A stretch of DNA of 64,000 nucleotides. Source: an uncultured Gammaproteobacteria bacterium (GTDB taxonomy: Bacteria; Pseudomonadota; Gammaproteobacteria; SZUA-229). Location: the NCBI GenBank assembly GCA_963768215.1, contig CAVYHW010000045.1:1821-65820 (forward strand), in the 5' to 3' direction. Numbering within the stretch: the stretch's first letter is position 1; each line of letters begins with the position of its first letter. Below, piece by piece: positions 2,161 through 59,822 of the stretch. The position numbers and the translations under genes were made by a program. A model generated the notes under the pieces. The model ran no database searches and was not told where the DNA came from. It saw only the letters and a program-made list of their open reading frames with translations.

Positions 2161-4200
2161 TTAGTGACTGGCTTGTACAGAAAGAAACATGCTGGCAGCT
2201 GCAGGATTTTCATTGGCCACAGCGGCAAAACTGTTAACCAGTTTATCTGCCTGTACGGCAAAAATTTTCTTTTGCTGTACTGGTTTCACCAATGCTGACA
2301 GCCTGCGCAGGTTCGACAAGGCAATGGCATTGGCTGCCGGTAGCGCATCATCAAAGATGCTTTTTGATCGGAACAGCAGATTTTTATCGTTAGCAGCCGA
2401 CTCAAAATAAGCATTCGAAACCTTATCAAAAAACAATCTGTCTTGCTCCTGCTGTAATTTTAGCGCTGTATTTAACCACCGGCTTTCATGATTGGCATCA
2501 TAGATTGTCAGCAGTCCATTGATCAGCCAGACATAGTCTGACAGCACAGGGCTGGAACTGGCCTTAGTATCACGGTACTGTCTATATAACTGGCCATCTT
2601 TGCTGTTAACCAGATGCTGTGTAATAAAATCTGCTGAGTGTATAGCCTCTGCCAATAGTTTCGGATCATCAAATACTTTCGAGGCGCGGGCAAAAGCAGT
2701 GATCATCATGCCATTCCAGGCAGTGATCACCTTGTCGTCAAGATGCGGACGGGGCCTTAACTGGCGTTTTACGTTGAGCTTTTTCTTTATCGAACTGAGC
2801 AGTGCCATTTGATTTTCTGTCAGCGGCTTATCCCGGAAATCTTCATCGATATAAAATATGTTTAGGTCGGTGAACTCCTGTCGTGGATCAGAATCGATAT
2901 TGCCATTTTCTCTGATATGAAAATATTTTTTAACCCAGTCAAATTCATCAGCAGTAAGATTGTTTTTCAACTCTGATTCACGCCATAAATAATAGGCGCC
3001 TTCGGCTTTATCTACGTGGTTATTTTTATCTGGCTGAGCATCTGCGGATCCGACACGTTCGCTATCCGCATCCAGCGCCGAATAATAACCGCCCTCGGCA
3101 GATCGCATCTCACGCTGTACAAATTCCAGCGTGTCATAAACGATCTGTTTATATTTAAGCTGTGCATCGACCTGGTAGAAGTCGCTATAAGCCAGCACCA
3201 TTAATGCCTGGCTGTATAACATCTTTTCAAAATGCGGAACCTGCCAGCGCTCATCTACCGAATAACGGTGAAAACCACCGCCGACCTGATCATATATTCC
3301 ACCTGAGGCCATTGCATCAAGCGTAGTTTTCATCATCTCTGTTAATTCTTTTTTATTTTTATCATCTAACCGTATGCGTTGATTCAGGTAGGCAAATATT
3401 CCCGGCCGCGGGAATTTTGGTGCAGCGCTAAAACCGCCGAACGATTCATCATAACTCGCTCTTATCTGCTGCACAGAAAGTTCATTGATATTGTCGGACA
3501 ACACACTTTCTTCGACCGTATCATCAGCCATTGCGGTAATACGTTCGGTTATCGATGTTGCGACCTCGTCGATCAGCTCAGGGTCTTGCTGCCATAACTC
3601 GTGTATCTTCAATAAAACATCTTTTAAACCTGTATGTCTGTCTGATGAAAACGGCGGATAATATGTCGCTGCATGAAATGGGCGAAGTTGATTATCAAGA
3701 AATACGGTCATCGGCCAACCGCCCTGACCATTAATTAATTGCGTTGCAGACATATACACCGAATCGATGTCTGGACGTTGTTCACGATCAACTTTTATAC
3801 AGACAAAATATTTATTTAATAGAGCAGCGATCTCTTTATTTTCAAATGACTCATGTGCCATAACGTGGCACCAGTGACAGGTCGAATAACCGATAGAAAG
3901 AAAGAGGGGCTTATGCTCTTTTTTCGCTTTTTCAAAAGCAACATCTCCCCAGGGATACCAGTTAACTGGATTGTATGCATGCTGCAATAAATAAGGACTG
4001 GATTCATCGATCAGACTATTTGCTTTTCGGCCTTCTTTTTTAGCCTGAGCAGCGGCTTGCTGTAAATAATTATCGACTGTGTTGTGTTCGATAGACGCAC
4101 TGATTTTAACGTCAGTCTGCGCCTCGGACGCAACAACAGACACAGATAAAAACTGTAAAAACAGAAAGAAAAATATAAATTTCATAGCATCAAAGACCAA
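2161..4200 (-). CDS. Thioredoxin-domain (DUF255/YyaL-like) protein with N-terminal signal peptide
   Basis: [43 protein letters not shown] is the DUF255 thioredoxin-like motif. A long alpha-toroid follows. The likely start is MKFIFFF… (hydrophobic signal). Confidence 0.8.
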
Positions 4201-4270
4201 ACCTCAAATATTAAACTTAGATATTAAGCGTAGAGACCAAACCCTAACTGTAGACGGATAAGCACAGGCA

Positions 4271-6331
4271 TTAAAGACGATACGCAAGTTCAAGACCATC
4301 CCTGATGGCTGTTTCTGCATCCAGCTCAGCTGCTTTTTTGGCACCACCGATAATATACACACTTTGGCCTATGTCACGGATCTGTTGATACAGTAAATTT
4401 TCAGATTTCTGCCCTGCACAGATAATGACATGATCAACAGCGATAACCTGTTTTTTCCCCTGATGTACGATATGCAGACCGTAATCATCAATTTTCTCGT
4501 AGACCAGATCAGATAACATCTTCACGCCTGCTTTGCGTAATGTCAGGCGCCGTATCCAGCCGGTTGTTCGTGCCAGGTTTTTTCCTGGTTTTTCGGCTTT
4601 ACGCTGCAACAGGTAGACCTCACGTTCACTGTGATGGTTCACCGGCTTATCTAACAGGCCACCACGATTCTTATATTGCCTGTCGATTCCCCAGTTTTCA
4701 TACCAGCTTTCTCTGCTGCACGAGTTACCGTCTTTACTGATCAACATCTCCGCGATATCAAAGCCGATTCCGCCAGCACCGATGATGGCCACTTTACTTT
4801 TCAGCGATGTTTTATTTTTAATGGCTGTTTCATAATCCATTACCGAGAAGTGTTCGATACCCTCGATGTCCGGTTTTCTTGGTGTAACCCCAGTGGCAAA
4901 TATGACCGCATCGGCATAAGTATCACGCAGATCTTCAAAAGCCACTTTGAAATTTCGATGCACCTCGACGTTCAGCAAGGTGAGCTGTGCTTCATAATAC
5001 CTAACCGTTTCATGATAGATTTCTTTGCCGGGTATCTCACTGGCCAGATTGAACTGGCCACCGAGGTTGTTTGCATCATAAGCGATAACATGATGACCGC
5101 GTAAAGCGGCATAATAAGCACACGATAAACCCGCCACGCCGAGCCCGACGATAATAATCGTTTTACACCGTTCCGCTTTGGTCAACGGGAACTCAGTCTC
5201 ATAAGCCGCTCGCGGGTTAACCAAACAGGTCGCCCTTTCCTGCTTGAACACACGATCAAGACAACCTTGATTACAGGCGATACATCGATTGATCAGATGC
5301 GACTCATTATTTTTTGCTTTCTGCACGAATTGACTGTCAGCAAGAAACGGCCTGGCCATCGATATCAGATCAGCGTCTCCATCCTGCAAACACTGCTCTG
5401 CCAGCTCAGGACTGTTTATCCGGTTTGAGGTGATCAGCGGTATATTAACAACCTGCTTTAATTTTTTTGTCACCCAGGTAAAAGCTGCTTCTGGCACAAC
5501 CGAAGCGATGGTTGGAATCCTTACCTCATGCCAGCCGATGCCAGTATTGATTATAGTGGCACCGGCTTTCTCGACCTGTTTTGCATGCTGTTCAATTTCC
5601 GGCCAACTGCTGCCGTCTTTATGCAGGTCGAGCATCGACAGTCGATAGATGATGATAAAGTCTTCACCCACAGCCCGCCGTATCGCCTGAATGATCTGCA
5701 GAGAAAAACGGATTCGATTTTCGAACGAGCCGCCCCATTCATCCTGTCGTTGATTGGTATTACTGCAGACAAACTGGTTTATCAGATAACCTTCAGAGCC
5801 CATCACTTCAACACCGTCATAACCCGCTCGCCTGGCAAGCCGTGCCGTATTTGCATAGGCGCTGATTATCTTGTTAATTTTTTTGTGGGTTAACTGCCTG
5901 GGAGAAAACGGCGAGATAGGTGACTGGATAGCGGAAGGTGCAACCGAAAATGGATGGTAGGCATAACGTCCTGCATGCAGGATCTGCAGACAGATTTTTG
6001 TTTCATGGCGATGCACTGCATCAACTAATTTACGATGTTTTGCGATCTGAAAAAAGGAGCTAAACTGCGATGCCATTAAAGACAGGCGGCCGCTAAAAGT
6101 TGGCGAGATACCGCCGGTGATAATCAAGCCGACTCCCGCCTTCGCTCGCTCCTCATAAAAACTGGCTAGCTTATCAAAACCTGACCAGTGCTCTTCCAGA
6201 CCGGTATGCATGGAACCCATGATGGTGCGATTACTTAGCTGGGTAAAACCCAGATCGAGCGGTTTCATCAAGAAGCAGAAATAAGACTTATTACTGGTTA
6301 AATTACTGGAATTCATATGAGATTCATCCAT
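4271..6331 (-). CDS. fadH: NADPH-dependent 2,4-dienoyl-CoA reductase (Old Yellow Enzyme domain + FAD/NAD(P)-binding domain)
   Basis: Old Yellow Enzyme domain (GSMHTGLEE…, HAGRYAYHP) followed by a Cys-cluster linker (RCIACNQGCLDRVF) and Rossmann folds (IVGLGVAGLSCAYYAA, IIGAGGIGFD). The true start is probably the internal MKPLDLGF at ~6268. Confidence 0.85.
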   Translation of the reverse strand: MDESHMNSSNLTSNKSYFCFLMKPLDLGFTQLSNRTIMGSMHTGLEEHWSGFDKLASFYEERAKAGVGLIITGGISPTFSGRLSLMASQFSSFFQIAKHRKLVDAVHRHETKICLQILHAGRYAYHPFSVAPSAIQSPISPFSPRQLTHKKINKIISAYANTARLARRAGYDGVEVMGSEGYLINQFVCSNTNQRQDEWGGSFENRIRFSLQIIQAIRRAVGEDFIIIYRLSMLDLHKDGSSWPEIEQHAKQVEKAGATIINTGIGWHEVRIPTIASVVPEAAFTWVTKKLKQVVNIPLITSNRINSPELAEQCLQDGDADLISMARPFLADSQFVQKAKNNESHLINRCIACNQGCLDRVFKQERATCLVNPRAAYETEFPLTKAERCKTIIIVGLGVAGLSCAYYAALRGHHVIAYDANNLGGQFNLASEIPGKEIYHETVRYYEAQLTLLNVEVHRNFKVAFEDLRDTYADAVIFATGVTPRKPDIEGIEHFSVMDYETAIKNKTSLKSKVAIIGAGGIGFDIAEMLISKDGNSCSRESWYENWGIDRQYKNRGGLLDKPVNHHSEREVYLLQRKAEKPGKNLARTTGWIRRLTLRKAGVKMLSDLVYEKIDDYGLHIVHQGKKQVIAVDHVIICAGQKSENLLYQQIRDIGQSVYIIGGAKKAAELDAETAIRDGLELAYRL

Positions 6332-6516
6332 AGATCATTCGTCTGCCCGATAACAAAACAAATTGTATCTTACTATCACCTATCTTTGGCAGGAAAAACA
6401 CCACACCGATTTTTAGTAAAATCGCGCAAAATACTATCTACGCAACAGCAAATAATTGTTTATTGTGTAGATGTGCCCTATAGTAGGCATTTTTAATGCA
6501 AGACCCACGTTGAGCT

Positions 6517-8277
6517 ATGTATAACCAGTACTTCGGATTTAAAGAGGCGCCTTTCTCTATTGCGCCCGATCCACATTATCTATATATGACGGCGCAACAC
6601 CGTGAAGCACTGGCTCATCTGGTTTACGGTTTAAACAGTGAAGGCGCCTGCATCCTGCTCACTGGCGAGGTTGGCACGGGTAAAACGACCATCTGCAGAT
6701 GCCTGCTAGAACAGGTTCCGGAACAGGCAAAAGTCGCATTAGTACTCAACCCTAAAGTCAGTGAAATCGAATTACTCGAGACCATCTGTGATGAATTGAA
6801 AATCAGTTATCCTGACACGGACAACAGCCTCAAAACTTATACAGATAAGATCTATGAATTCTTAATCGAAAGTAATCGCAAAAATGAAAAAACCGTATTA
6901 ATCATCGATGAAGCACAGAACCTGAGCAGTCCAGTCCTCGAACAACTTCGCTTGCTCACCAATCTGGAAACCAACCAACGCAAGTTATTACAGATCATTA
7001 TTTTAGGCCAGCCAGAACTGCTGGATATCCTGGCGAAATCCGAGATGCGGCAGCTTGCACAACGTATCACCGCACGCTTCCATCTAAAACCGCTGTCAAA
7101 AGATGAGGTTAAATCTTATGTCAGTCATCGCCTTGCCGTCGCCGGACAAAATATACAGTTATTTCCTGACAGCAGCATCAAGTTACTTTTTAAACTCAGC
7201 AAAGGCATACCCCGACTGATCAATGTTTTATGCGACCGCGCTTTGCTCGGTGCCTACGTAGAAAGCCAGAACTCAGTCAATCCGAACATCATAAAAAAAG
7301 CTGCAACAGAAGTTTTTGGTGAGTTAAAAAATGTTGAAAATAAGAATAAATTCAAACACTGGTTATATTCAGTCACTGCAGCATCCAGCATTATTCTACT
7401 TGTTAGCGTCCTGATCTTCTACATCACGCAGCCAGAAAACAGCGGCAGTGCTATTATAGAAAATCCCTTCACGCAAGAACAAACAACTTCGTTAGATAAT
7501 CATGCCGAGGATACAAACGAAACAAAAACCACTCCATTCCTTTCAGCGTTATCTGATCAGGAGACAGACTCATTACCAGGATCGCTAGGTGGACAGCCCA
7601 TCACCGATCCTGATGTTGCGACAACAGGCAGTTCAAGTACAGTCGAAAAAAACGCCACAACGCTAACTCAATATGATGATATGAAAGAAATATTAAATAA
7701 TGACTCAGACAGTATTGCCTCAGCTTATCAGGCGCTATTTAAATTGTGGGGAGAAAACTACAATATCAATCTTGCTGATACTGCATGCAAACAGGCAAAA
7801 TCACATTCTCTTGGCTGCCTGTACAAACAGGGAAACTTAAACAATCTAAAAGCGCATAGTCGCCCGGCTGTTTTAACGCTGATTAACAACGATGGTAGCA
7901 CGCACTACATTACTGTCGCTTCGATACACGAGGATTATGCCAAAGTATTTTATGACAATAGCGAATACAAAATCAGACTCAGCGATCTGGATAAATACTG
8001 GTACGGGCAGTTTGTTTTACTGTGGAAAAAACCAGCCAACTATTCTTCTGCCGTCACACCTGGCGACAAAGGCCCGATCGTAAGCTGGCTAAGATCACAT
8101 TTCGAGACTAAAAAACTTACAGGCAACGACCGCTACGATAAAAAGTTAATAAATGAAGTTAAAAGTTTTCAGTCACAACATGGATTAGCTGCTGATGGAA
8201 TCGTCGGCCCTGTTACTATCATCCATTTAAATACACAGTCTGGCTTAGCCGCGCCTACGCTAATCAAACAGAATTAA
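6517..8277 (+). CDS. gspA: GspA/ExeA-like AAA ATPase with C-terminal peptidoglycan-binding domain
   Basis: Walker A LLTGEVGTGKTT in the ExeA-type N-terminus, a TM segment, and a C-terminal PG-binding motif (SFQSQHGLAADGIVGPVT). Confidence 0.8.
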   Translation: MYNQYFGFKEAPFSIAPDPHYLYMTAQHREALAHLVYGLNSEGACILLTGEVGTGKTTICRCLLEQVPEQAKVALVLNPKVSEIELLETICDELKISYPDTDNSLKTYTDKIYEFLIESNRKNEKTVLIIDEAQNLSSPVLEQLRLLTNLETNQRKLLQIIILGQPELLDILAKSEMRQLAQRITARFHLKPLSKDEVKSYVSHRLAVAGQNIQLFPDSSIKLLFKLSKGIPRLINVLCDRALLGAYVESQNSVNPNIIKKAATEVFGELKNVENKNKFKHWLYSVTAASSIILLVSVLIFYITQPENSGSAIIENPFTQEQTTSLDNHAEDTNETKTTPFLSALSDQETDSLPGSLGGQPITDPDVATTGSSSTVEKNATTLTQYDDMKEILNNDSDSIASAYQALFKLWGENYNINLADTACKQAKSHSLGCLYKQGNLNNLKAHSRPAVLTLINNDGSTHYITVASIHEDYAKVFYDNSEYKIRLSDLDKYWYGQFVLLWKKPANYSSAVTPGDKGPIVSWLRSHFETKKLTGNDRYDKKLINEVKSFQSQHGLAADGIVGPVTIIHLNTQSGLAAPTLIKQN

Positions 8278-8279
8278 CC

Positions 8280-8996
8280 ATGTCCTACATACTTGATGCA
8301 CTAAAAAAATCTGAGCAGGAACGTGGTCAGGGCCGTGTACCCGATGTTCAAACGGTGCATTCATCCGGTCTGAATTATCGAAAAGATAAAAAATCTTACT
8401 GGCCTTACGTGCTAATTACCGCCGTTTTATTAAATCTTGTAGCGATCACATACTTCATTATTAATAAAGACAATCCACAGACAGAAAATCTGACTGCGGA
8501 TAATATCGTACCTGTTATCGAAGAAAACAACATCACTCCGCCAGCCCCTGAAATAACCACACCGTTAGACACGACAGTAAATGTCAGCAATAAAAATGAC
8601 AGCAAACTCCTGGCCACTAAAAAAGAATCCACCAATGACATTGGCTATCAGGAGAGCAGATCTGTCGAAGAAAGCCGTCAACCGACAGCAAGTAACCCAG
8701 TCATTATTAAAGAAGAAAAAACAAGAGAACCCGTAACGAGCTTCAACAGCGATGAAATCATTAGTTTTCATGAGTTACCACCATCGATAAAAGCGCAATT
8801 ACCCACTATTACAATCTCTGCTCATGTTTACTCCAGCAACCCATTACAGCGTAGCATTGTTATCAATAATAACTTTATGGAAGAAGGCGAATACCTTATC
8901 GATGGTTTAATACTTTATGAGATCACACCTGATGGTGCAATATTTGATTACCAGGGCACCTTGTTCAACTATGGCGTTGTCTCTGGCTGGCAATAG
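8280..8996 (+). CDS. gspB: GspB/ExeB-like general secretion pathway protein B
   Basis: MSYILDALKKSEQERGQ N-terminus typical of GspB, one TM, and translational coupling to gspA (3-nt gap). Confidence 0.6.
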   Translation: MSYILDALKKSEQERGQGRVPDVQTVHSSGLNYRKDKKSYWPYVLITAVLLNLVAITYFIINKDNPQTENLTADNIVPVIEENNITPPAPEITTPLDTTVNVSNKNDSKLLATKKESTNDIGYQESRSVEESRQPTASNPVIIKEEKTREPVTSFNSDEIISFHELPPSIKAQLPTITISAHVYSSNPLQRSIVINNNFMEEGEYLIDGLILYEITPDGAIFDYQGTLFNYGVVSGWQ

Positions 8997-16435: not shown

Positions 16436-17167
16436 ATGAAATCAATACTTACAAGCGCTTTCTTAGCAGGCGCGCTGTTATTTGTTCTGGATACATGGGC
16501 GGCTGAAATATCTGGGTTTGTAGGTCACAGCTCGATGCAAGTAGCACCCAATATGACAGTAAAATTAACTAAAGGAGATAGTGGTCAAGTAGTTGATATT
16601 GATGAAACAAATTTTTTTGGTAAGTATAGCTTCGAAGATGTCAGTCCTGGGTACTATAAATTACAGGTCGGAGATATTACCCGTGAATTAATGATTAAAG
16701 GCAGTAATGAGGAGAAACGAATTGATGTAGATCTTAGCGCTAAAAGCGGTGCTATGCATTACGGTAAGGCCATGAAGGAATTAGATACTAATGCGAAGAG
16801 CGCAGCAAGTGGAAAGCCAATGACTAATAATCAAAATCTGGCTAGCCAGATTGCAGGTGACTGGCGGGGGTATGCTGGCTCAACAGAACGTCGTATAGGT
16901 CTTTGTCCTGGTGGAGCTTACCGAGATTACACTGAGTCAAGTTATTCAGGTGGTTCATATAGTAATCAGGGTGCTGCATGGGGTGCAGCCAGTCAGCACG
17001 GTGGTCAAGGTAGCTGGGCTATACAGGGTGACGCGCAGAGTGGTGTGATATCAGTACGCTATAACAGTGGTGAAACGACCTCTCTAAACTATCGCCAAAT
17101 TAATGATCCAGGATGTCTTGATATCAACGGCAATACGCTGTGTCGCACCTCAGCAACGTGTGAGTAA
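16436..17167 (+). CDS. Secreted protein with CarboxypepD_reg-like N-domain and Gly/Ser/Cys-rich C-region
   Basis: Signal peptide (MKSILTSAFLAGALLFVLDTWAA). KYSFEDVSPGYYKLQV resembles a carboxypeptidase-regulatory/transthyretin-like beta-sandwich. Four C-terminal Cys. Confidence 0.5.
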   Translation: MKSILTSAFLAGALLFVLDTWAAEISGFVGHSSMQVAPNMTVKLTKGDSGQVVDIDETNFFGKYSFEDVSPGYYKLQVGDITRELMIKGSNEEKRIDVDLSAKSGAMHYGKAMKELDTNAKSAASGKPMTNNQNLASQIAGDWRGYAGSTERRIGLCPGGAYRDYTESSYSGGSYSNQGAAWGAASQHGGQGSWAIQGDAQSGVISVRYNSGETTSLNYRQINDPGCLDINGNTLCRTSATCE

Positions 17168-31064: not shown

Positions 31065-32066
31065 TTATATTTTCTGCACGTTTCTCAGGTTTACTACGCT
31101 GGTCAGCAGAAAATAGCGGTAGTCACTCATGCCGCCATAACTCACAGGCGCAGCACCTGCAATTGAAAAAGATTTAGTTGTATCGATGCCTCTCTGCTGC
31201 TCGTTAGAGCGCATCAACAACCAGATTTTTGCAGCATAAACATCTGACCAGTCGTCCACATCATCAGGATCAACATAACGGTCAATTGCTTCATCATTAT
31301 CTACATCGACACCAAATTGCACCTGCAAATCAGAAACACCCGATATCAGTGTTTGATTTTGTAAGGCTGGCCCATTTTCCAGGGCAACACGTCGTAAAGA
31401 TGGAATGCCATCACCTGCTGTATCAGTGTAATCACTTATGTAATAAACATAAGCATGCAGTTCATGGTTCCTGGTCTGCGATGAAGAATCATAAGAATTA
31501 ATGACTGGCTGAGTAGCGCCAACAAAAATCTTTCCATTAATCGCATTGCTGCGAACATAAACCTGGTTAGCTAATAATGCAGCGGGTGGATTAGAGTCTG
31601 CGTAACGTATTTCCAGAATATCAGTGGTATCAACATGGCCTTCATCGACCATACAGCTTGCAGAATATGGATTAGCTGCACTATTATCTGTGGCAAAAAC
31701 AGGTGTCGTTAAATTATAATACCAGCCAACTGCACAGTCCCCTGCAACGGCTCCCGGCAGGTCTTCACCTGCTGAAGATGCAGTACATGCAGCATCACTG
31801 GACTTACAACTGATTAAGGCAGCTTTATTAGTACCACCCCACATGCCAGCATGGCGCAAATCGTAAGAAATCATTTCAATAGCAAAACGCGCATCAGCCA
31901 CCATGTCCATTTGCATTTCGTTTACTGCCTGTGTTTTTCGTGTTGTTGAATGCAATGAAAACGCACCGCTAATAATCACCAGGCCAACAGTCATTGCAAC
32001 CAGTAATTCAACCAGCGAAAAACCATACGATTGTCTGTTCTTTATTTTCATCTCAACCTCTAACAT
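31065..32066 (-). CDS. pilW: PilW-like minor pilin
   Basis: Prepilin motif GFSLVELLVAMTVGLVII. Size and position consistent with PilW. Confidence 0.7.
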   Translation of the reverse strand: MLEVEMKIKNRQSYGFSLVELLVAMTVGLVIISGAFSLHSTTRKTQAVNEMQMDMVADARFAIEMISYDLRHAGMWGGTNKAALISCKSSDAACTASSAGEDLPGAVAGDCAVGWYYNLTTPVFATDNSAANPYSASCMVDEGHVDTTDILEIRYADSNPPAALLANQVYVRSNAINGKIFVGATQPVINSYDSSSQTRNHELHAYVYYISDYTDTAGDGIPSLRRVALENGPALQNQTLISGVSDLQVQFGVDVDNDEAIDRYVDPDDVDDWSDVYAAKIWLLMRSNEQQRGIDTTKSFSIAGAAPVSYGGMSDYRYFLLTSVVNLRNVQKI

Positions 32067-32623
32067 GGAATCTCGGTACAGATATTTGTTGTAGTGGTAT
32101 AAGTCTTGGAAACACTACTAGAGGCACCAGCCGAAGTATCTTTACTACGTTCACTCCAGGTTATATCAATTTTTACTGTTGCCATTTTTGATGGCGCAAC
32201 AGCCGGTGTTACGGTAACAAGCGTTGTTGCTGCACCAGGCAAACCGGCTTTTAAATTCTGCTTCCACCAGTAAACATCATCCTGCGCCAGCTCCGTTTCA
32301 CTGCAATTTTTAGTACCTGTACAGGCACTGTTTACGCCGGCGCCAGCATAAGTCGCCAGCACCGAGGGATTGGCCCGCATGCTTTCAAAGAGCTCGTCAA
32401 CTTTCATCATGGCGACAGAACCATATACTGATGTTTTACCGGCCTGCAGAGAAATAGCCTGCAATGAAGCAATACCCAGCATACCCATAGAAAGAATCAG
32501 AAAACCTATTAAGGCCTCTAACAGGGTAAAGCCCTTGCTGTTGTTTATATGGCAGCTTTTTATATGGCTGTTTTGCCTGTTTATTAGTTTTACAGGTATT
32601 ATTTTTAGGGTTTTTATGGACAT
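32060..32623 (-). CDS. pilV: PilV-like minor pilin
   Basis: Prepilin motif KGFTLLEALIGFLIL. Overlaps pilW by 7 nt. Confidence 0.7.
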   Translation of the reverse strand: MSIKTLKIIPVKLINRQNSHIKSCHINNSKGFTLLEALIGFLILSMGMLGIASLQAISLQAGKTSVYGSVAMMKVDELFESMRANPSVLATYAGAGVNSACTGTKNCSETELAQDDVYWWKQNLKAGLPGAATTLVTVTPAVAPSKMATVKIDITWSERSKDTSAGASSSVSKTYTTTTNICTEIPC

Positions 32624-33204
32624 GAAATCACCGCCGCATTATCAGAGATACGTGCCCGACCTGACAAACTTAATATCACTGCACGAGAATCAAGCGTACT
32701 GCCCGAATCATCCAGACTGCATAAACTGAAAGTACCCGACTGCGAAGCCCCGGCAGCACTTCTAGGCAAGCCACGAGCATTAAAGGTAAACGAACTAATA
32801 TCAGCTCCTCCTGCATTCACACCTGCAACTGTCAACTGGTTGTCAGTAAATGCATCATGCACGCGTAATAAACAATCTGTACCGAGTGCAGCACATGGAG
32901 CGCCGGTGCCCTCAAGGTTACCGTCAGCATCAACAAATACGATCCAGCCATCTTCCCAATTATCTGTGCCGGGGCCGGTACATGATGTACCATTGGTGCT
33001 TTCACATATAGTCACGCTGGTATCAAGTTTAATCGCCTCAGTTCGGGCGAGATGCAAGGCCGAAACCAGTTCATTAGTAGAAGCTATAAGCTGATTGCCC
33101 TGCATAAATGTTTTTAGTGAAGGCAAACCTACCGTAAGCAAAATACTTACGATAGACAGGGTTACCATCAACTCAATCAGCGTAAATCCAGAATGTTTTT
33201 TCAT
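32614..33204 (-). CDS. fimT: FimT/FimU (GspH-family) minor pilin
   Basis: MKKHSGFTLIELMVTLSIVSILL, GspH-like. First gene of the fimT-pilVWXY1E block. Confidence 0.7.
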   Translation of the reverse strand: MKKHSGFTLIELMVTLSIVSILLTVGLPSLKTFMQGNQLIASTNELVSALHLARTEAIKLDTSVTICESTNGTSCTGPGTDNWEDGWIVFVDADGNLEGTGAPCAALGTDCLLRVHDAFTDNQLTVAGVNAGGADISSFTFNARGLPRSAAGASQSGTFSLCSLDDSGSTLDSRAVILSLSGRARISDNAAVISCP

Positions 33205-33331: not shown

Positions 33332-33603
33332 ACTAGGGCGCCTCTGATCAAATCTATTATGTTTCTGGCTTACAGGCTTGTTCGTAATCAAGACAGTATT
33401 TTGAAAGCATGTAGATACCTGGTGAAAAATACTAACGAAGAGTACGGGCAAGCCAGAAAGCCCCTCCGGGCGTGGCCTGAAGGGCACATCTGCCACGTTG
33501 CAAAGCTTGTTAAGGACTAAGGCCATTAACTTCACTTTGCGCCTTGCATCTGCACCCTTCAGGTCACGCAGAAGCATAATAGATTTGATCAGAGGCGCCC
33601 TAG
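33332..33603. mobile_element. 272-bp MITE-like element, copy A (29-bp perfect TIRs CTAGGGCGCCTCTGATCAAATCTATTATG)
   Basis: Near-identical copy at 41847-42117. Internal secondary palindrome (CCTGAAGGGCACATCTGC…GCATCTGCACCCTTCAGG). Confidence 0.8.
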
Positions 33604-41844: not shown

Positions 41845-41846
41845 AA

Positions 41847-42117
41847 CTAGGGCACCTCTGATTAAGTCTATTATGCTTCTGGCTTACAGGCTTGTTCGTA
41901 ATCAAGGCAGTATTTTGAAAGCATGTAGATACCTGGTGAAAAATACTAACGCAGAGTACGGACAAGCCTGTAAGCCCCACTGGGCGCGGCCTGAAGGATA
42001 CATCTGCCACGTTACAAAGCTTGTTAAGGACTAAGGCCATTAACTTCACTTTGCGCCTTGCATCTGCACCCTTCAGGTCACGCAGAAGCATAATAGACTT
42101 GATCAGAGGTACCCTGG
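41847..42117. mobile_element. 271-bp MITE-like element, copy B
   Basis: ~93% identical to 33332-33603 with the same TIRs. Squeezed between the plsC start and the gmhB stop. Confidence 0.8.
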
Positions 42118-53751: not shown

Positions 53752-54159
53752 TTAATTAATTTTTGAACCGCTTAATTCCCAGGCATACGCACAGTCCAGT
53801 TCAGATAAAACAGCCACCACACCTGTTTCACCATCTTCCAGCATGGCCTGTAGAGGGCACCGGTTCTTTAGTCGTGCATGTGGCGCAGCCATCCAGCGCG
53901 CACCCATCTGTAAATTTCTTGGGTAAGAAGTGCGCAAGGCATCAATAATGCCCAGTAAAAACTTTACCCGGCATGCCACATTTTCATCATCGGGAAACGG
54001 TGTATCTTTACGATATTTTGCCAGATGACGACTGCGCTCAGTCTCAGGAAAATCCAGAATGGCGAGTATCTGATCACCACTCAAACCCCAGTCATCCAGT
54101 GCATTCATCACTTTTTGTGTATGCAACAATTTTTGTTCAGCACTTATGGTAATAGTCAT
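53752..54159 (-). CDS. DUF2384 (Xre-like antitoxin C-terminal/MbcA-ParS type) domain protein, no cognate toxin adjacent
   Basis: C-terminal RNLQMGARWMAAPHARLKNRCPLQAMLEDGETGVVAVLSELDCAYAWE fits the DUF2384 pattern (A..Wl..pn..lgg..Pl.ll.t..G...V...L..i..G). Confidence 0.55.
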   Translation of the reverse strand: MTITISAEQKLLHTQKVMNALDDWGLSGDQILAILDFPETERSRHLAKYRKDTPFPDDENVACRVKFLLGIIDALRTSYPRNLQMGARWMAAPHARLKNRCPLQAMLEDGETGVVAVLSELDCAYAWELSGSKIN

Positions 54160-54996: not shown

Positions 54997-55566
54997 ATGA
55001 AATCTTATTCCATCACCTTCGCTTTATTCATTAATTTCTTTTTCCAGCCTATGTCATGGGCAACCAGTTTATTACCCATCAGCCTTGAGCAACTTTCGAC
55101 TCGCGCAACTTTAATTTTTTACGGAGAGGTTGTAAGTAATCAGGTAAAAAAAGATGAACCACATGGGCACATTGTCACTTTTACTGAATTCAATATAATC
55201 GAATTAATTAAAGGCAATGCTGGCGATAGCCACACTATAAAACAAATTGGTGGCTCTTTAAAAGAAAGCAATATCAGGCTTCGAATTCATGGTGTGCCTG
55301 AATTTGTAACCGGTAAAGAATATGTCGTTTTTTTACCGGAAAAGTCTCAACGTGGATTTAGTAGCCCATTAGGTTTACATCAGGGTGCATTTTCTGTTGA
55401 GAGTATTAATGGTGAAAAAATTGTAAGTAACGGCAGCAAACCAGCACCACAGGTTAATTCTGGTAATCGAAGTATAAATATCCCACTAGCCATAAATCCT
55501 GAGAACCCAACTCAGTCAAATCTGAATAACTTCATTAATACTGTGCGAGCATACAATATTCAATAA
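54997..55566 (+). CDS. Secreted hypothetical protein (189 aa) upstream of the metzincin
   Basis: Signal peptide. 5-nt gap to the next gene. No motif. Confidence 0.5.
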   Translation: MKSYSITFALFINFFFQPMSWATSLLPISLEQLSTRATLIFYGEVVSNQVKKDEPHGHIVTFTEFNIIELIKGNAGDSHTIKQIGGSLKESNIRLRIHGVPEFVTGKEYVVFLPEKSQRGFSSPLGLHQGAFSVESINGEKIVSNGSKPAPQVNSGNRSINIPLAINPENPTQSNLNNFINTVRAYNIQ

Positions 55567-55571
55567 GTAAG

Positions 55572-56810
55572 ATGATAAAGTCATTCAGAATAATCTGTGT
55601 TTTCCTTTTGCAAATCTACGGCAGCATATCTTATGCTGGCGGCCCTTTAGCTGCAGTAAGCCTCAATGGAGGCACAGCTGTTACTTATCAGGACTCAAAC
55701 ATTACATTACATATAGAAAATGGTGACCTGGGCGGCCTTTCTAACGCAGTGGCTGTTACACTCATGCAGGAAGCATTTGAACTATGGAACAGTATAACCA
55801 CATCTAGTATAAACCTGAATTTGGACCAGACCCAAATAGCACTTGATATTGACCACCTTAACTATCAGGTTTATTTACCTAATGAAACAGACAACTTGAA
55901 TCCCATTATTTTTGACTCCGACGGGAAAATTATTGATGAATATCTAGGTAATTCCCAAAGCGATTTAATATTAGGGTTTGCCGAATCAATAGTTAATACC
56001 GCAACAGGCCATTTTATTGAAGGCAGTATTGTACTTAATGGCAAGATAACTGGCAGAACAAATACAGAAATCAAACTGACTTTTGCACATGAAGCCGCAC
56101 ATTTTTTTGGACTTGACCATTCACAAAACGATATCAACAATCAGGAATCTTTTTTTGATTTGCCACTATTCTGCTTTACCACAAATTCAGATAACTATCC
56201 TCTGATGTATCCAGTTTCATGCCGTGAAAATGAAACTTTGCATGCCGATGATATCAGTGCAGCATCTGCACTTTATCCTGCAGCAAACGTCAATGACAGC
56301 TTTGGTATTTTAAATGGGCAGTTTTTTGATGAATCAGGTAATGCTATTTTAGGCGCCAACATCTGGGCAGAGAATACTACAACAGGTGAAATTGTCAGTA
56401 TTGTCTCGGATTATTTAAAACAGGGCACAGGTTATTACAAACTATATCTGCCGCCAGGTATGTATACACTGCATGCAAACTCTATAAATACAGAATTTAC
56501 AGCTGGTTCTGGCGTAGGGCCATATTCTCTTACCAGTTCTGATATATCATTTACTGAACCTCACCCTATAGCAGAAGTAACATATCATGGCAGCAATGAA
56601 GCCAATGATGAAGTTATCTCTATTATGGACAACCAGGCAGTGGCCATAGATTTCGCCAGCACGGGTGCACTTATCGTAACCGAATCCAGCAATGAGTCAG
56701 AAGATGATAGCTGGCGTGACTTATTTGGTGCGACGTCACATATAACGCTATTAATAATGGCTGGCCTTTTAGTATTTGGACGTTTAATTACTAAACCGAA
56801 GTCTGCGTGA
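55572..56810 (+). CDS. Secreted M10-family (matrixin/serralysin-like) zinc metalloprotease with C-terminal hydrophobic-basic tail
   Basis: Signal peptide. HEAAHFFGLDHS (HExxHxxGxxH) plus Met-turn YPLMYP. The C-terminal …SHITLLIMAGLLVFGRLITKPKSA looks like a sorting or anchor signal. Confidence 0.75.
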   Translation: MIKSFRIICVFLLQIYGSISYAGGPLAAVSLNGGTAVTYQDSNITLHIENGDLGGLSNAVAVTLMQEAFELWNSITTSSINLNLDQTQIALDIDHLNYQVYLPNETDNLNPIIFDSDGKIIDEYLGNSQSDLILGFAESIVNTATGHFIEGSIVLNGKITGRTNTEIKLTFAHEAAHFFGLDHSQNDINNQESFFDLPLFCFTTNSDNYPLMYPVSCRENETLHADDISAASALYPAANVNDSFGILNGQFFDESGNAILGANIWAENTTTGEIVSIVSDYLKQGTGYYKLYLPPGMYTLHANSINTEFTAGSGVGPYSLTSSDISFTEPHPIAEVTYHGSNEANDEVISIMDNQAVAIDFASTGALIVTESSNESEDDSWRDLFGATSHITLLIMAGLLVFGRLITKPKSA

Positions 56811-59800
56811 TGCTGAATCAGCAATAAACTGTAAAAACCTGTCATTTTCCATTGGCTCACTCACATAATATCCCTGAATAGTTTCTACGCCACGCTGATT
56901 CAAAAACTCAAACTGATCCCTGGTTTCTACACCTTCACCTATAATGCTTAATCCCAGGCTGTGCGCCATGGCAATAATTGCTTCGCATAATGCCGTATCG
57001 TCGGGGTCTTCACCTATATCAGAAACAAACGCTTTATCAATTTTCAACACATCAAATGGAAAACGTTTTAAATAACTTAAAGAAGAATAACCGGTGCCAA
57101 AATCATCTATTGATAGCCGGATACCCATGCCCTTAAACTGGCTTAATAAATTAATTACATGCGGCACATCTTTCATTAACAGGCGTTCAGTGATTTCAAG
57201 TTCAAGACATGAACCCGGCAAATCATATCGCTTTAGAGCATCTGAAATATTCTTAACAATATTTTTGCCCCTAAACTGACGGCTGGATAAATTAACCGCA
57301 ATATAAAAATCTTTATACTCTGTATTTTTCCGCCATTGTTTTACACTGGAAAGTGCTGTATCCAGCACCCAGTTACCTATTTCAACAATCAAACCACTTT
57401 CTTCCGCAAGCGGGACAAACTCTTCCGGTGACACATCACCCAACTCTTCGTCGACCCAGCGTATTAAAGCTTCAGCGCCAACAATTGATTTTGACCGGGC
57501 ATCCATCAAGGCCTGATATTTCAGATAAAAATCACCGCCTTCCAGTGCATGACGCAACTTATTATCAATCTCAACACGTTTCATCACCACATCGCCCATT
57601 TCAGGCGTAAAGACTTGATATGTATTGCGGCCTTTACGCTTGCTTCTATACATTGCCGTGTCTGCATTCCTTAGCAGCACATGCGGATCATCACCATCCT
57701 GTGGAAAAATAGCAACACCGACACTGGCAGTAACGGAAAATTCCATGTCCTGTATCACGCAGGGTTTTGAAACATGACGTAAAATATCTTCTGCTTTATT
57801 TTTTACAATGTCCTCAAAAGAAACAGCACGAACATCCCTGTCTTCAAAAGAAGAAGCATGAACTTCCCTGGGCTCATCAACCTCTAGCAGCATGATTAAA
57901 AACTCATCTCCACCCAGTCGCGCTACTGTATCAAAATCACGCACACAGGCTTTTAGCCTGCCAGCCATATATCTTAAAAACTCATCTCCGGCACTATGGC
58001 CTAAGGTGTCATTAATATTCTTAAAATGGTCAAAGTCCATATATAAGATTGCAATATGTTTTTGCTCACGATCCGCAGTTGCAATTGCCTGTTGAATGCG
58101 GTCATAAGCCAGAGTACGATTTGGTAAATCTGTTAACTTGTCGTAACTGGCCTGATATAACAGGCGATCTTCATAGTCCTTACGCAGGGAAATATCTTCT
58201 TTAATGGCCAGGTAATGCGTACTTTGGTTATTACCATTCTTAATTGGAGAAACGGTGACGTTTTCCCAGAACAGTTCGCCGTTTTTCTTTTTATTGTAAA
58301 GCTCTCCAGTCCATGATTTGCCGGAGATAATTGCATTCCACATGTTTTTAAACTGTACTTCAGGTGTATGACCTGATTTTAAAATACGCGGGTTCTGCCC
58401 TATTAATTCATCCTCTGTGTAACCTGTAATTTTACATAGCTGAGGATTAACATACTCTATAGCACCATCCAGATCAGTAATCATTACAGAGACAGGACTT
58501 TGTTCTATCGCCTGTGATAATTTATGTAAACTTTCTGCGGTAAGCTTATGGCTGCCAACCTCATCTTCTAAATCAACAATCAAACCATTGATATTTTCCG
58601 TCATTTCATTAAATGCTTTGGCCAGAATACCTATTTCATCATCCGCCTCAATATTAGCTTTGGCTTTCAGATCACCATCGGCAATTTTTTTAACCACGGT
58701 AGTTAAGCGTTTAACAGGCCCTAGCAAGAGCTGTGTTGCCGCCATAACGATTAATACAACGATAAATATGATAATACATGCCAGCAGTAAAGTGGTTTTT
58801 GTTTGCGCCACCACAGGCTCTAAAAATATATCCTGTGGTAAAGACACAATAATGGTCCACGGCGCTGTGCTTAACTTGATAACTGCGGAAGAATACATTG
58901 ATGTACCCAGGCCATAAAACCGGGTTTCCATAATAGGTAAACTATCACTCATACTCTGAACTTTTTTACTCCATTCAGAAGGTTCAATAAACGCCGTAGA
59001 AGCATTTTTCGGTACTCGTTTATCTTTTATTAGTTCCTGTAATTTTTTCTCGTCGTGTCCAGTTGCCAGGGTATAGTTAAGATCCGCCCGACGCCCATGG
59101 ATCAGGCGAAGATAATTTTCATCCAGCAAAACTGCAAATGAGCCTCGACCAACCATACCCCTGGTTTTTCCAAACAGTGTTGTAAGAATAGAAGCATCAT
59201 ATTTTGCCCTCAAAACACCGATCAGTTTTCCTGATAAATCATTAATGGCACTACTGAAAACAATGACCGCCTGCTTTTCATCAAAAATTACCGGGGATCG
59301 ATAGCTATTAAGACCTGTATTAATGGCCAGTTGACTAAAATATTCCTGCTGACTTTCATCCGCACCAATATTTGCTGAATCGGTATCCAGTATATTAATA
59401 CCTTCCCTGTTTAATATTGCATAGGAAGAAATATGCTCATTCTGCCTGGACCTGAGCGCACGTAATATTTCCAGCAGCGCCTGACGATTAAAGGGTGGCT
59501 CTGCTTTTCGGGTAATAAAATAATTAATTGTCGGCAGGCTTGCTTCGGTTTTTAAAAACTGCGAATTGCGGCGATTAAACTGGTCGATTCGTGCTGCATA
59601 GTTCCTCGCAGCCAAATTTAGCGCATTGTTTGCACTCTCAGCCAGGTTCTCACGCATAATGTAGCCATCAAGTACAGCCAGCACTGACAGCGAGGTCAAC
59701 ACGATGACCAGGAACGCCATGATAAGTTTGGCGCGCAGGGTATATCTGCGCGCAAGAAAAATGCCGATCACCAGCAGCACGATGCCACTAATTACCAGTA

Positions 59801-59822
59801 AACCTGCAATCTCTAATACCAC
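56784..59822 (-). CDS. Membrane sensor GGDEF/EAL protein with periplasmic sensor, HAMP and PAS domains
   Basis: Two TM helices flanking a ~300-aa periplasmic domain, HAMP, PAS, GGDEF (RLGGDEFLI), EAL (ELEITE…, DDFGTGYSSL). Its 3' end overlaps the convergent metzincin gene by 27 nt. Confidence 0.9.
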   Translation of the reverse strand: MVLEIAGLLVISGIVLLVIGIFLARRYTLRAKLIMAFLVIVLTSLSVLAVLDGYIMRENLAESANNALNLAARNYAARIDQFNRRNSQFLKTEASLPTINYFITRKAEPPFNRQALLEILRALRSRQNEHISSYAILNREGINILDTDSANIGADESQQEYFSQLAINTGLNSYRSPVIFDEKQAVIVFSSAINDLSGKLIGVLRAKYDASILTTLFGKTRGMVGRGSFAVLLDENYLRLIHGRRADLNYTLATGHDEKKLQELIKDKRVPKNASTAFIEPSEWSKKVQSMSDSLPIMETRFYGLGTSMYSSAVIKLSTAPWTIIVSLPQDIFLEPVVAQTKTTLLLACIIIFIVVLIVMAATQLLLGPVKRLTTVVKKIADGDLKAKANIEADDEIGILAKAFNEMTENINGLIVDLEDEVGSHKLTAESLHKLSQAIEQSPVSVMITDLDGAIEYVNPQLCKITGYTEDELIGQNPRILKSGHTPEVQFKNMWNAIISGKSWTGELYNKKKNGELFWENVTVSPIKNGNNQSTHYLAIKEDISLRKDYEDRLLYQASYDKLTDLPNRTLAYDRIQQAIATADREQKHIAILYMDFDHFKNINDTLGHSAGDEFLRYMAGRLKACVRDFDTVARLGGDEFLIMLLEVDEPREVHASSFEDRDVRAVSFEDIVKNKAEDILRHVSKPCVIQDMEFSVTASVGVAIFPQDGDDPHVLLRNADTAMYRSKRKGRNTYQVFTPEMGDVVMKRVEIDNKLRHALEGGDFYLKYQALMDARSKSIVGAEALIRWVDEELGDVSPEEFVPLAEESGLIVEIGNWVLDTALSSVKQWRKNTEYKDFYIAVNLSSRQFRGKNIVKNISDALKRYDLPGSCLELEITERLLMKDVPHVINLLSQFKGMGIRLSIDDFGTGYSSLSYLKRFPFDVLKIDKAFVSDIGEDPDDTALCEAIIAMAHSLGLSIIGEGVETRDQFEFLNQRGVETIQGYYVSEPMENDRFLQFIADSASRRLRFSN

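Follow-up and report, generated by a model that had tools for sequence, protein, structure and literature searches.

What links a small secreted protein to the secreted metalloprotease encoded five nucleotides behind it, and what is the conserved tail at the end of that protease for? These questions are raised by a two-gene locus in a 64,000-nucleotide stretch of DNA (the window) from an uncultured gammaproteobacterium (contig CAVYHW010000045.1). The second gene, gene 2, encodes a zinc protease related to the animal matrix metalloproteinases (MMPs), and the first, gene 1, encodes a protein whose predicted fold resembles that of the tissue inhibitors of metalloproteinases (TIMPs) and of netrin-like (NTR) modules. 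From structural models and by analogy with known systems, we propose that the genes form a bicistronic protease-guardian module, in which gene 1 would inhibit the protease in the manner of a TIMP, and the protease tail would be processed by a rhomboid-type enzyme and the protease handed over to the machinery of type II secretion (T2SS). We judge this proposal to have an even chance of being correct. The locus comprises the following features.

54997..55566, + strand: gene 1, encoding a secreted, cysteine-free protein of 189 residues (open reading frame and 277 homologues)
54997..55062, + strand: gene 1 signal peptide, residues 1-22, with a predicted signal-peptidase I site SWA↓TS and without a lipobox (from sequence; putative cleavage)
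55063..55077, + strand: predicted mature N-terminus of gene 1, T-S-L-L-P, a candidate zinc-site-binding segment (from conservation; putative inhibitory role)
55567..55571, + strand: 5-nucleotide spacer between the gene 1 stop and the gene 2 start (bicistronic, probably translationally coupled)
55572..56810, + strand: gene 2, encoding a 412-residue matrixin-like (M10A) zinc metalloprotease with a tripartite C-terminal tail (open reading frame, Pfam, fold)
55572..55637, + strand: gene 2 signal peptide, residues 1-22, with predicted cleavage SYA↓GGP (from conservation and a model helix at 2-15; putative cleavage)
55689..56279, + strand: gene 2 catalytic domain, about residues 40-236 (model secondary structure and confidence, MMP/karilysin fold match, alignment to karilysin)
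56088..56123, + strand: gene 2 extended zinc-binding motif HEAAHFFGLDHS, residues 173-184 (translation)
56196..56213, + strand: gene 2 Met-turn YPLMYP, residues 209-214, between conserved Cys201 and Cys217 (translation; putative disulfide)
56304..56666, + strand: gene 2 carboxypeptidase-regulatory-like beta-sandwich, about residues 245-365 (sub-threshold PF13620 and model strands)
56667..56717, + strand: gene 2 linker, residues 366-382, with the acidic run ESEDDS at its end, predicted to be disordered (translation, model confidence)
56718..56741, + strand: gene 2 tail signature motif DLFGATSH (translation, family conservation)
56742..56780, + strand: gene 2 tail hydrophobic segment ITLLIMAGLLVFG, 13 residues, or 20 if LFGATSH is counted (translation, model helix 390-406)
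56781..56807, + strand: gene 2 basic C-terminus RLITKPKSA (conservation of R404)

The matrixin-like protease and its pairing with gene 1

Both open reading frames are real genes, because database homologues exist for the protease (382, mostly of 405-430 residues) and for gene 1 (277, mostly of 189-194 residues). None of these homologues carries an informative name. The layout that had been predicted from the letters alone, with two genes, a 5-nucleotide spacer, a zinc motif, a Met-turn, the tail sequence and a 27-nucleotide overlap with a convergent gene, was found again in every part, including the 189-residue length of gene 1 and its N-terminal signal peptide.

The gene 2 product is, by sequence and model, a matrixin-like (M10A) zinc protease and a bacterial relative of the animal MMPs, with predicted activity. 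The zinc-site residues H173, E174, H177, G180 and H183 are invariant throughout the family (68-120 sequences) and make up the HExxHxxGxxH motif followed by Ser/Thr. Within the gammaproteobacterial clade, Y209, P210, M212, Y213, P214, C201 and C217 do not vary, and the Met-turn aligns with the LMYPY of karilysin, a protease of Tannerella forsythia. The signal-peptide junction (A22, G23, G24, P25) is 92-100% conserved. The Pfam model Peptidase_M10 (PF00413) passes marginally, at 25.0 bits where the gathering score is 24. An AlphaFold2 model of gene 2 (predicted local distance difference test score, pLDDT, 86.5; predicted template-modeling score, pTM, 0.81) has the MMP catalytic fold: its best Foldseek matches are karilysin and MMP-13, -1, -3, -12, -8 and -10, and karilysin and MMPs make up almost all of the top 50 (E 4e-6 to 4e-4; target-normalised template-modeling (TM) score 0.63-0.70). 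When the gene 2 family profile was compared with Protein Data Bank (PDB) sequences, the sole match was karilysin (E 0.003), and the alignment is collinear through helix A, the zinc motif, the Met-turn and the DD...LY helix. The assignment of gene 2 to the M10 metzincins, originally made from the active site, is thus sustained by the invariant zinc motif and Met-turn, the Pfam score and the fold.

Karilysin is described (PMC9890683) as the sole MMP from beyond the mammals whose structure and function have been characterised. It and the MMPs share with gene 2 the HExxHxxGxxH-S/T motif, an LMYP-type Met-turn, the DD...LY helix and the catalytic fold. However, identity to gene 2 is only 15-19%, and gene 2 has neither a cysteine switch nor an identifiable prodomain, adds a carboxypeptidase-regulatory-like beta-sandwich and a conserved pair of Cys residues flanking the Met-turn, and ends in a membrane tail rather than in a hemopexin domain or a type IX secretion domain. 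The beta-sandwich is suggested by a PF13620 match of 27 bits to the middle region, which lies under the gathering score, and by model beta strands at 245-304 and 349-358. No cysteine-switch prodomain (PRCGxPD) is recognisable in gene 2, because only about 17 cysteine-free residues (GGPLAAVSLNGGTAVTY) lie between the signal peptide and the catalytic domain. The missing switch is no bar to matrixin membership, because karilysin also lacks one.

Gene 1 accompanies the protease wherever we looked. The comparison set consists of the window and 15 fetched loci, with 8-10 kb of flank to either side of the gene, or as much as the contig allowed. Profile searches of all open reading frames in these sequences placed a single copy of gene 1 directly upstream of the protease gene, on the same strand, in 16 of 16 loci. 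The junction in the other loci is either a gap of 2-24 nucleotides or a 4-nucleotide overlap of the ATGA type, the latter in loci L002, L004, L014 and L015. At least 22 further pairs of gene 1 and gene 2 homologues are on contigs identical in size. No terminator-like site was found between the two genes of the window, and a scan for promoters and terminators gave signals no better than chance.

The pairs are found in four unrelated contexts. The first is a syntenic gammaproteobacterial neighborhood with the order Lon-N, DjlA, Xre-like, def, gene 1, protease, GGDEF-EAL and S9 peptidase. The second is L004, from a metagenome-assembled genome of Burkholderiales, in which the cassette (5646-6959, - strand, and upstream) is beside a phage-type integrase and phage-like replication genes; these surroundings suggest horizontal transfer of the two-gene module. 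In the third and fourth contexts, L014 and L015, the proteases have entirely different C-termini. Because the pair is kept across these contexts, the cassette appears to move and persist as one unit, an argument that gene 1 and the protease interact functionally and directly. The functional coupling of the two genes, which had been proposed from their spacing in the window, is therefore supported at the level of sequence. In one locus (L003, contig CAVYHC010000029.1), the protease orthologue at 4181-5185 is broken into at least two reading-frame pieces, with the first approximately 86 profile positions unmatched and an intact gene 1 upstream; it is a pseudogene or an assembly frameshift.

Downstream of gene 2 is a convergent gene, given here as context only.

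56784..59822, - strand: dCache-HAMP-PAS-GGDEF-EAL sensor gene (domain matches)

This gene is syntenic across the gammaproteobacterial lineage and is missing from the L014 and L015 contexts. Its overlap with the 3' end of the protease gene is 38 nucleotides in L002, 27 in the window, 12 in L011 and 4 in L005 and L006, and it gives way to gaps of 2 to about 50 nucleotides in L008, L009, L010, L012 and L013. A functional meaning for the overlap was rejected: the overlap is incidental, because neither its length nor its presence is conserved among orthologous loci.

Gene 1 and its predicted TIMP/NTR-like fold

Gene 1 has no match in Pfam (E up to 10) or NCBIfam. The AlphaFold2 model (pLDDT 76, pTM 0.69) suggests an oligonucleotide-binding (OB) barrel with flanking helices, and nearly all of its top 22 Foldseek matches in the PDB are TIMP-1 and TIMP-2, the agrin NtA domain, and the NTR domains of PCOLCE and meteorin (best E 8e-4, probabilities 0.9-1.0, target-normalised TM score up to 0.51). 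Generic OB folds rank lower. TIMPs and NTR modules (MEROPS I35; PF00965, PF01759) also resemble gene 1 in that removal of a signal peptide leaves a free N-terminus, and gene 1, like a TIMP, is paired with a matrixin, in this instance genetically.

The N-terminus is the second point of resemblance. The A-x-A↓T signal-peptidase pattern is conserved in an alignment of 60 gene 1 sequences, in which T23 and P27 do not vary and the conservation of S24 is 90% or more; the cleavage site itself is predicted. Homologues down to approximately 30% identity begin with [TASM]-[STM]-[LVM]-[LV]-P-[LIV]-x-L-x-Q, so that the Pro stays at mature position 5. In TIMPs, inhibition is exerted by residue 1 with its free alpha-amino group (PMC9890683), and their N-terminus, C-[TS]-C-x-P, has in common with the x-[ST]-x-x-Pro of the gene 1 family both the Ser/Thr at position 2 and the Pro at position 5. 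This parallel in register is suggestive.

A mechanism can be sketched from these features. Both products would be exported by Sec by means of their cleavable signal peptides. The protease, having no recognisable latency prodomain, would be active once folded in the periplasm, where the gene 1 product is predicted to be a soluble OB-fold protein of TIMP/NTR-like shape. Signal-peptidase cleavage would bare the x-[ST]-x-x-Pro terminus of gene 1 in its invariant register, and by analogy with TIMPs, the protein would most likely bind the active-site cleft of the protease through its free alpha-amino end and keep the enzyme silent in the cell. As judged from the model and by analogy, gene 1 thus most likely encodes the protease's cognate inhibitor or guardian in the periplasm. 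The original prediction had offered inhibitor, chaperone or substrate as roles for gene 1; the first of these gains specific support of a predicted kind from the TIMP/NTR-like fold, the invariant mature N-terminal register and the adjacency in all 16 loci and four contexts.

Several results weigh against a TIMP-like inhibitor. The fold match is modest, with TM scores of 0.3-0.5, and is made with a model whose N-terminal segment has a pLDDT below 50. A search of PDB sequences with the gene 1 profile (E up to 10) found nothing relevant, and hhalign detected no similarity between the gene 1 family alignment and human TIMP-1 to TIMP-4 (probability 0.4%; the TIMP sequences were verified against the PDB). 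Gene 1 lacks cysteine; a TIMP carries Cys1 and six disulfides, Cys1-Cys70 and Cys3-Cys99 among them. With no cysteines and no profile similarity, gene 1 falls outside the TIMP family on both sequence and disulfides, and its resemblance to TIMPs is at the level of the predicted fold only. Residue 1 in the gene 1 family is Thr, Ala, Ser or Met, and the protein is bacterial, periplasmic and composed of a single domain, in further contrast to TIMPs.

Gene 1 might instead be mainly a dedicated periplasmic chaperone for folding or secretion, a role that could coexist with inhibition. The adjacent gene product CpaB is such a T2SS chaperone for the metalloprotease CpaA (PMC4713064) in Acinetobacter, and LipB is a second parallel. 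The strict adjacency and common orientation of the pair and the T2SS accessory genes in the genome are compatible with this role. However, the gene 1 protein is predicted to have its signal peptide cleaved and to adopt a TIMP/NTR-like fold, and the invariant mature N-terminal register is more easily explained by insertion into an active site, so we consider a chaperone unlikely.

Serralysin inhibitors (Inh/APRin; MEROPS I38) are periplasmic beta-barrels encoded beside a metzincin, and insert an N-terminal SSLxL into its active site. Gene 1 gives no signal with the Pfam Inh model (PF02974), and its best fold matches are TIMP and NTR domains rather than Inh. Potempins are inhibitors encoded at most 5 bp upstream of karilysin and other KLIKK peptidases (PMC9890683). 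Like the potempin PotA, which is paired with karilysin and is a specific inhibitor, gene 1 is a small signal-peptide protein, and its 5-nucleotide gap to gene 2 falls within the potempin-type spacing of an open reading frame upstream of, and co-transcribed with, a secreted peptidase. In contrast, potempins are outer-membrane lipoproteins with a lipobox and have other folds and modes of inhibition. Gene 1 has no lipobox, with no Cys at or near its predicted cleavage site, and no PotA chains are among its Foldseek matches.

In Listeria monocytogenes, the mtz-tim locus encodes a metzincin together with a TIMP-like lipoprotein (PMC8235301). The host is Gram-positive, the locus is phage associated, mtz precedes tim, and Tim is cleaved and released by Mtz. 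This precedent raises the question of whether gene 1 is a substrate or effector that is activated by cleavage, and a low-confidence loop in the model (residues 147-169) might be a cleavage site. However, gene 1 is not a lipoprotein, the gene order is reversed relative to mtz-tim, and the most conserved surface feature of gene 1 is its extreme N-terminus and not an internal site. Activation by cleavage is therefore improbable, and more so than a chaperone role.

The C-terminal tail of the protease

The gene 2 product ends in ...DLFGATSHITLLIMAGLLVFGRLITKPKSA. This tail has a tripartite layout, DLFGATSH / ITLLIMAGLLVFG / RLITKPK, that is conserved throughout the family and corresponds to the layout of GlyGly-CTERM signals. 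The pattern [DEKN][LIVMF][FL]G is present in 112 of 120 family tails, which typically run in the order acidic run, S-[FI]-A, motif, x-x-S-[HY], approximately 13 hydrophobic residues and Arg. Most orthologues have the acidic run ahead of the motif. The conserved tail positions are F385 (93%), G386 (97%), S389 (99%), T392 (90%) and R404 (99%), and 106 of 118 DLFG tails have exactly 18 residues from Gly386 to Arg404. These residues are as conserved as core positions of the catalytic domain, a pattern not to be expected from a passive anchor.

A disordered linker, a Gly motif without Cys, a short helix and a basic cluster are descriptive curation criteria for GlyGly-CTERM proteins (PMC3237569). 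In the gene 2 model, linker residues 372-379 have a pLDDT below 50 and residues 390-406 form a terminal helix, and the motif has its conserved Gly and no Cys. The description of the sorting signal of VesB, a secreted protease of Vibrio cholerae, matches the same layout (PMC13393428). GlyGly-CTERM proteins are processed by rhombosortase (TIGR03501/TIGR03902; PMC3237569, PMC6219818, PMC13393428), and the gene 2 family shares with them the linker, Gly motif, helix and basic end on a secreted protease, T2SS components in the genome, and G/S-rich orthologue tails with the same spacing. The differences are that DLFG has a single Gly and no TIGR03501 score, that the DLFG tail is in one protein family, and that no rhombosortase is nearby in the window or in the flanks of the 15 loci.

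The G/S-rich tails are the most direct link to this class. In some orthologues, a run of G and S residues replaces DLFG directly before the same helix and basic end, as in P0095 (SSGGGGTTSQITLL...GRLRLRR) and P0338 (GGGGGAISHITLL). Their genes occupy the same syntenic slot with gene 1 upstream, and 18 residues is again the most common distance from the last Gly of the motif to the first basic residue. Two of these GG-type tails align end-to-end with the GlyGly_CTERM model TIGR03501, at 13.8 and 11.1 bits, under its cutoff of 15.5, and there are weak matches also to MprA_tail and to the GlyGly-CTERM end of the SVAGG model. SGGGG-type tails are present in the same slot at the same spacing, which bears on the curation criterion of extended homology through a trusted GlyGly-CTERM instance (PMC3237569), but none reaches the trusted cutoff. 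A neighbor-joining tree of the rest of the protein has GG-type members on its deepest branches and a DLFG crown, inside which G/S-rich tails reappear at least four times. Because the GG types are basal, recur within the DLFG clade and have the same spacing, the DLFG motif (DLFG[AS]xS) is best read from sequence as a lineage-specific derivative of a GlyGly-CTERM-like, rhombosortase-type tail.

By this reading, the tail would first keep the protease tethered at the inner membrane, its catalytic part facing the periplasm. Most likely, a rhomboid-type intramembrane protease would then cut the tail close to the conserved Gly/Ser, and type II secretion with surface display or release would follow, as for VesB. 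Two genes of the window, given as context, bear on the route.

6517..8996, + strand: GspA (6517-8277; AAA_22, GspA_C39-like, PG_binding_1) and GspB (8280-8996; T2SSB), type II secretion accessory proteins

The T2SSB match to GspB scores 65.7 bits against a gathering score of 28.4, and in one fetched locus, gspI-N are 6-10 kb from the protease orthologue. Because gspA and gspB are in the window and gspI-N are near an orthologue, a type II route is available.

A number of results speak against a rhombosortase-type signal. The isolated window tail matches nothing in Pfam or NCBIfam at E up to 10, including TIGR03501. An exhaustive search of 1.84 billion representatives with a 36-position tail profile returned only three fragments of the protease family and one spurious repeat protein. 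In a control at the same database size, full-length members scored 45-67 bits, so close copies of the tail elsewhere would be seen; the search is blind to divergent sharing below approximately 40 bits, and GG-type variants score only 17-22 bits. A regular-expression and hydropathy scan of the window's open reading frames and the fetched loci found no second tail-bearing open reading frame. Among close copies, the tail is therefore confined to one protein family, unlike the tails of sorting systems, for which many-to-one sharing is typical. Neither the 64-kb window nor the fetched flanks of the 15 loci contain a rhomboid, exosortase or CPBP gene. In genomes with a single GlyGly-CTERM target, rhombosortase is adjacent in 16 of 21 (PMC3237569), and because single-target systems are usually adjacent, the missing neighbor weakens the case for a dedicated system to some degree. 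The same paper (PMC3237569, Tables 2-3) records exactly one GlyGly-CTERM protein, and no rhombosortase found, for Beggiatoa sp. PS. The tree has no support values, and the G/S-rich tails could be mere flexible linkers ahead of an anchor.

These observations favor a permanent type-I membrane anchor, in which case the protein would be a membrane-type bacterial matrixin, analogous to the membrane-type MMPs and tethered to the inner membrane in the periplasm. The conserved G-x-x-S...R would then serve helix packing, positioning or the binding of a partner, and the basic C-terminus would agree with the positive-inside rule. However, the purely hydrophobic stretch is only 13 residues, and the conservation of the motif at the level of catalytic-domain positions, the fixed distance from Gly to Arg and the end-to-end, sub-threshold matches of variant tails to GlyGly-CTERM models are not what an anchor would call for. 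In distant relatives, moreover, other C-terminal modules take the place of the tail, as is seen in exported surface proteins. A permanent anchor is a serious alternative to which we give somewhat less than an even chance. The original prediction held that the tail would be a simple membrane anchor if no other protein shared it and no sortase-like enzyme existed. The first part came out that way as regards close copies, and the second applies to the window and the flanks of the 15 loci.

The same prediction had compared the tail to exosortase and rhombosortase signals. The likeness to a sorting signal survives for the rhombosortase type, given the G/S tails of orthologues and their identical spacing. 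The exosortase (PEP-CTERM-type) link was rejected: apart from the generic tripartite layout, there is no Pro-Glu-Pro or related motif in the 120 tails, no match to a PEP-CTERM-type model and no exosortase gene in any locus, so that an exosortase signal is highly improbable.

The wider family and other features of the window

A search seeded with a Burkholderiales-type protease connects gene 2 to a superfamily that NCBI names "matrixin family metalloprotease", with hosts in Nitrotoga, Casimicrobiaceae, Gemmatimonadales and Vicinamibacterales. Its members share the catalytic and beta-sandwich core and differ in their C-terminal modules, which include Ig-like, fn3, PPC and Calx-beta domains and short tags. 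Because these modules vary on a shared core, the C-terminus appears to be a localisation module that can be exchanged, with the TIMP-fold gene upstream remaining constant.

Two of the short endings deserve description. In a betaproteobacterial clade, the protease ends in ...[TL]-P-I-L-M-L-L-L-[DE]-COOH, with approximately seven hydrophobic residues, a terminal acidic residue and no basic cluster. This tag is carried by the protease of L014 (8001-9137, P0278) and by P0258, P0279, P0285, P0287, P0290, P0293, P0299, P0300, P0301 and P0306. To our knowledge, it is not any described C-terminal sorting signal, and no candidate processing gene is obvious within 8 kb in L014. A subgroup of about 445 residues (P0259, P0260, P0288, P0289 and P0295) ends in ...YYLGP(L/S)S...LD(V/E)G(A/E)LS..L(S/A)T(A/S)GC(Q/H)-COOH, with a penultimate Cys, and this ending may be another terminal tag.

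The locus combines known kinds of element in a new form: an M10A-like protease, a TIMP-fold partner with a precedent of other architecture in Listeria, and a tail that is GlyGly-CTERM-like but whose motif is new. TIMPs are regarded as an invention of animals. A far-reaching interpretation is that the cassette is a genuine bacterial MMP-TIMP system, in which a cysteine-free TIMP/NTR-fold family inhibits co-encoded matrixins through an N-terminus made by signal peptidase and shares ancestry with metazoan TIMP/NTR domains. The animal pair would then be derived from, or mirrored by, an ancient prokaryotic cassette, and one gammaproteobacterial lineage would have evolved the DLFG variant of a rhombosortase-type tag for a single family. 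We regard this whole chain of propositions as doubtful. The cassette has hundreds of members in uncultured Gamma- and Betaproteobacteria, with relatives annotated from other phyla. It would provide a tractable bacterial model of disulfide-free inhibition by an N-terminal wedge, would yield new scaffolds for selective MMP inhibitors and would inform the question of where the MMP/TIMP pair came from. The alternation of DLFG and poly-Gly tails at one orthologous locus is a natural experiment on the requirements of rhombosortase-type signals, for which a VesB chimera system is published (PMC13393428).

Several other features of the window were observed. A protein of 135 residues (53752-54159, - strand) has the toxin-binding C-terminal domain of Xre/MbcA/ParS antitoxins (PF09722, 28 bits). 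Its gene is alone between a 107-residue open reading frame and def, without an adjacent RES-type toxin gene, and keeps this position in all syntenic loci.

A 270-nucleotide direct repeat occurs at 33332-33601 and 41846-42115, with 93% identity between copies 8.5 kb apart. Each copy overlaps a short, probably spurious open reading frame beginning ...LLRDLKGADARRKVKLMALVLNKLCNVADV, and the pair may represent a repeat element or a mobile remnant.

A cluster of minor pilins of a type IV pilus (26054-33204, - strand) includes several open reading frames with an N-terminal prepilin-like GFTL(I/V)E. Within it, an open reading frame of 919 residues has no Pfam match at E up to 0.001 and is possibly PilY1-like.

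A secreted protein of 243 residues (16436-17167, + strand) consists of a carboxypeptidase-regulatory-like/SdrD_B beta-sandwich, the same domain type as the middle region of gene 2, without a protease domain or a tail.

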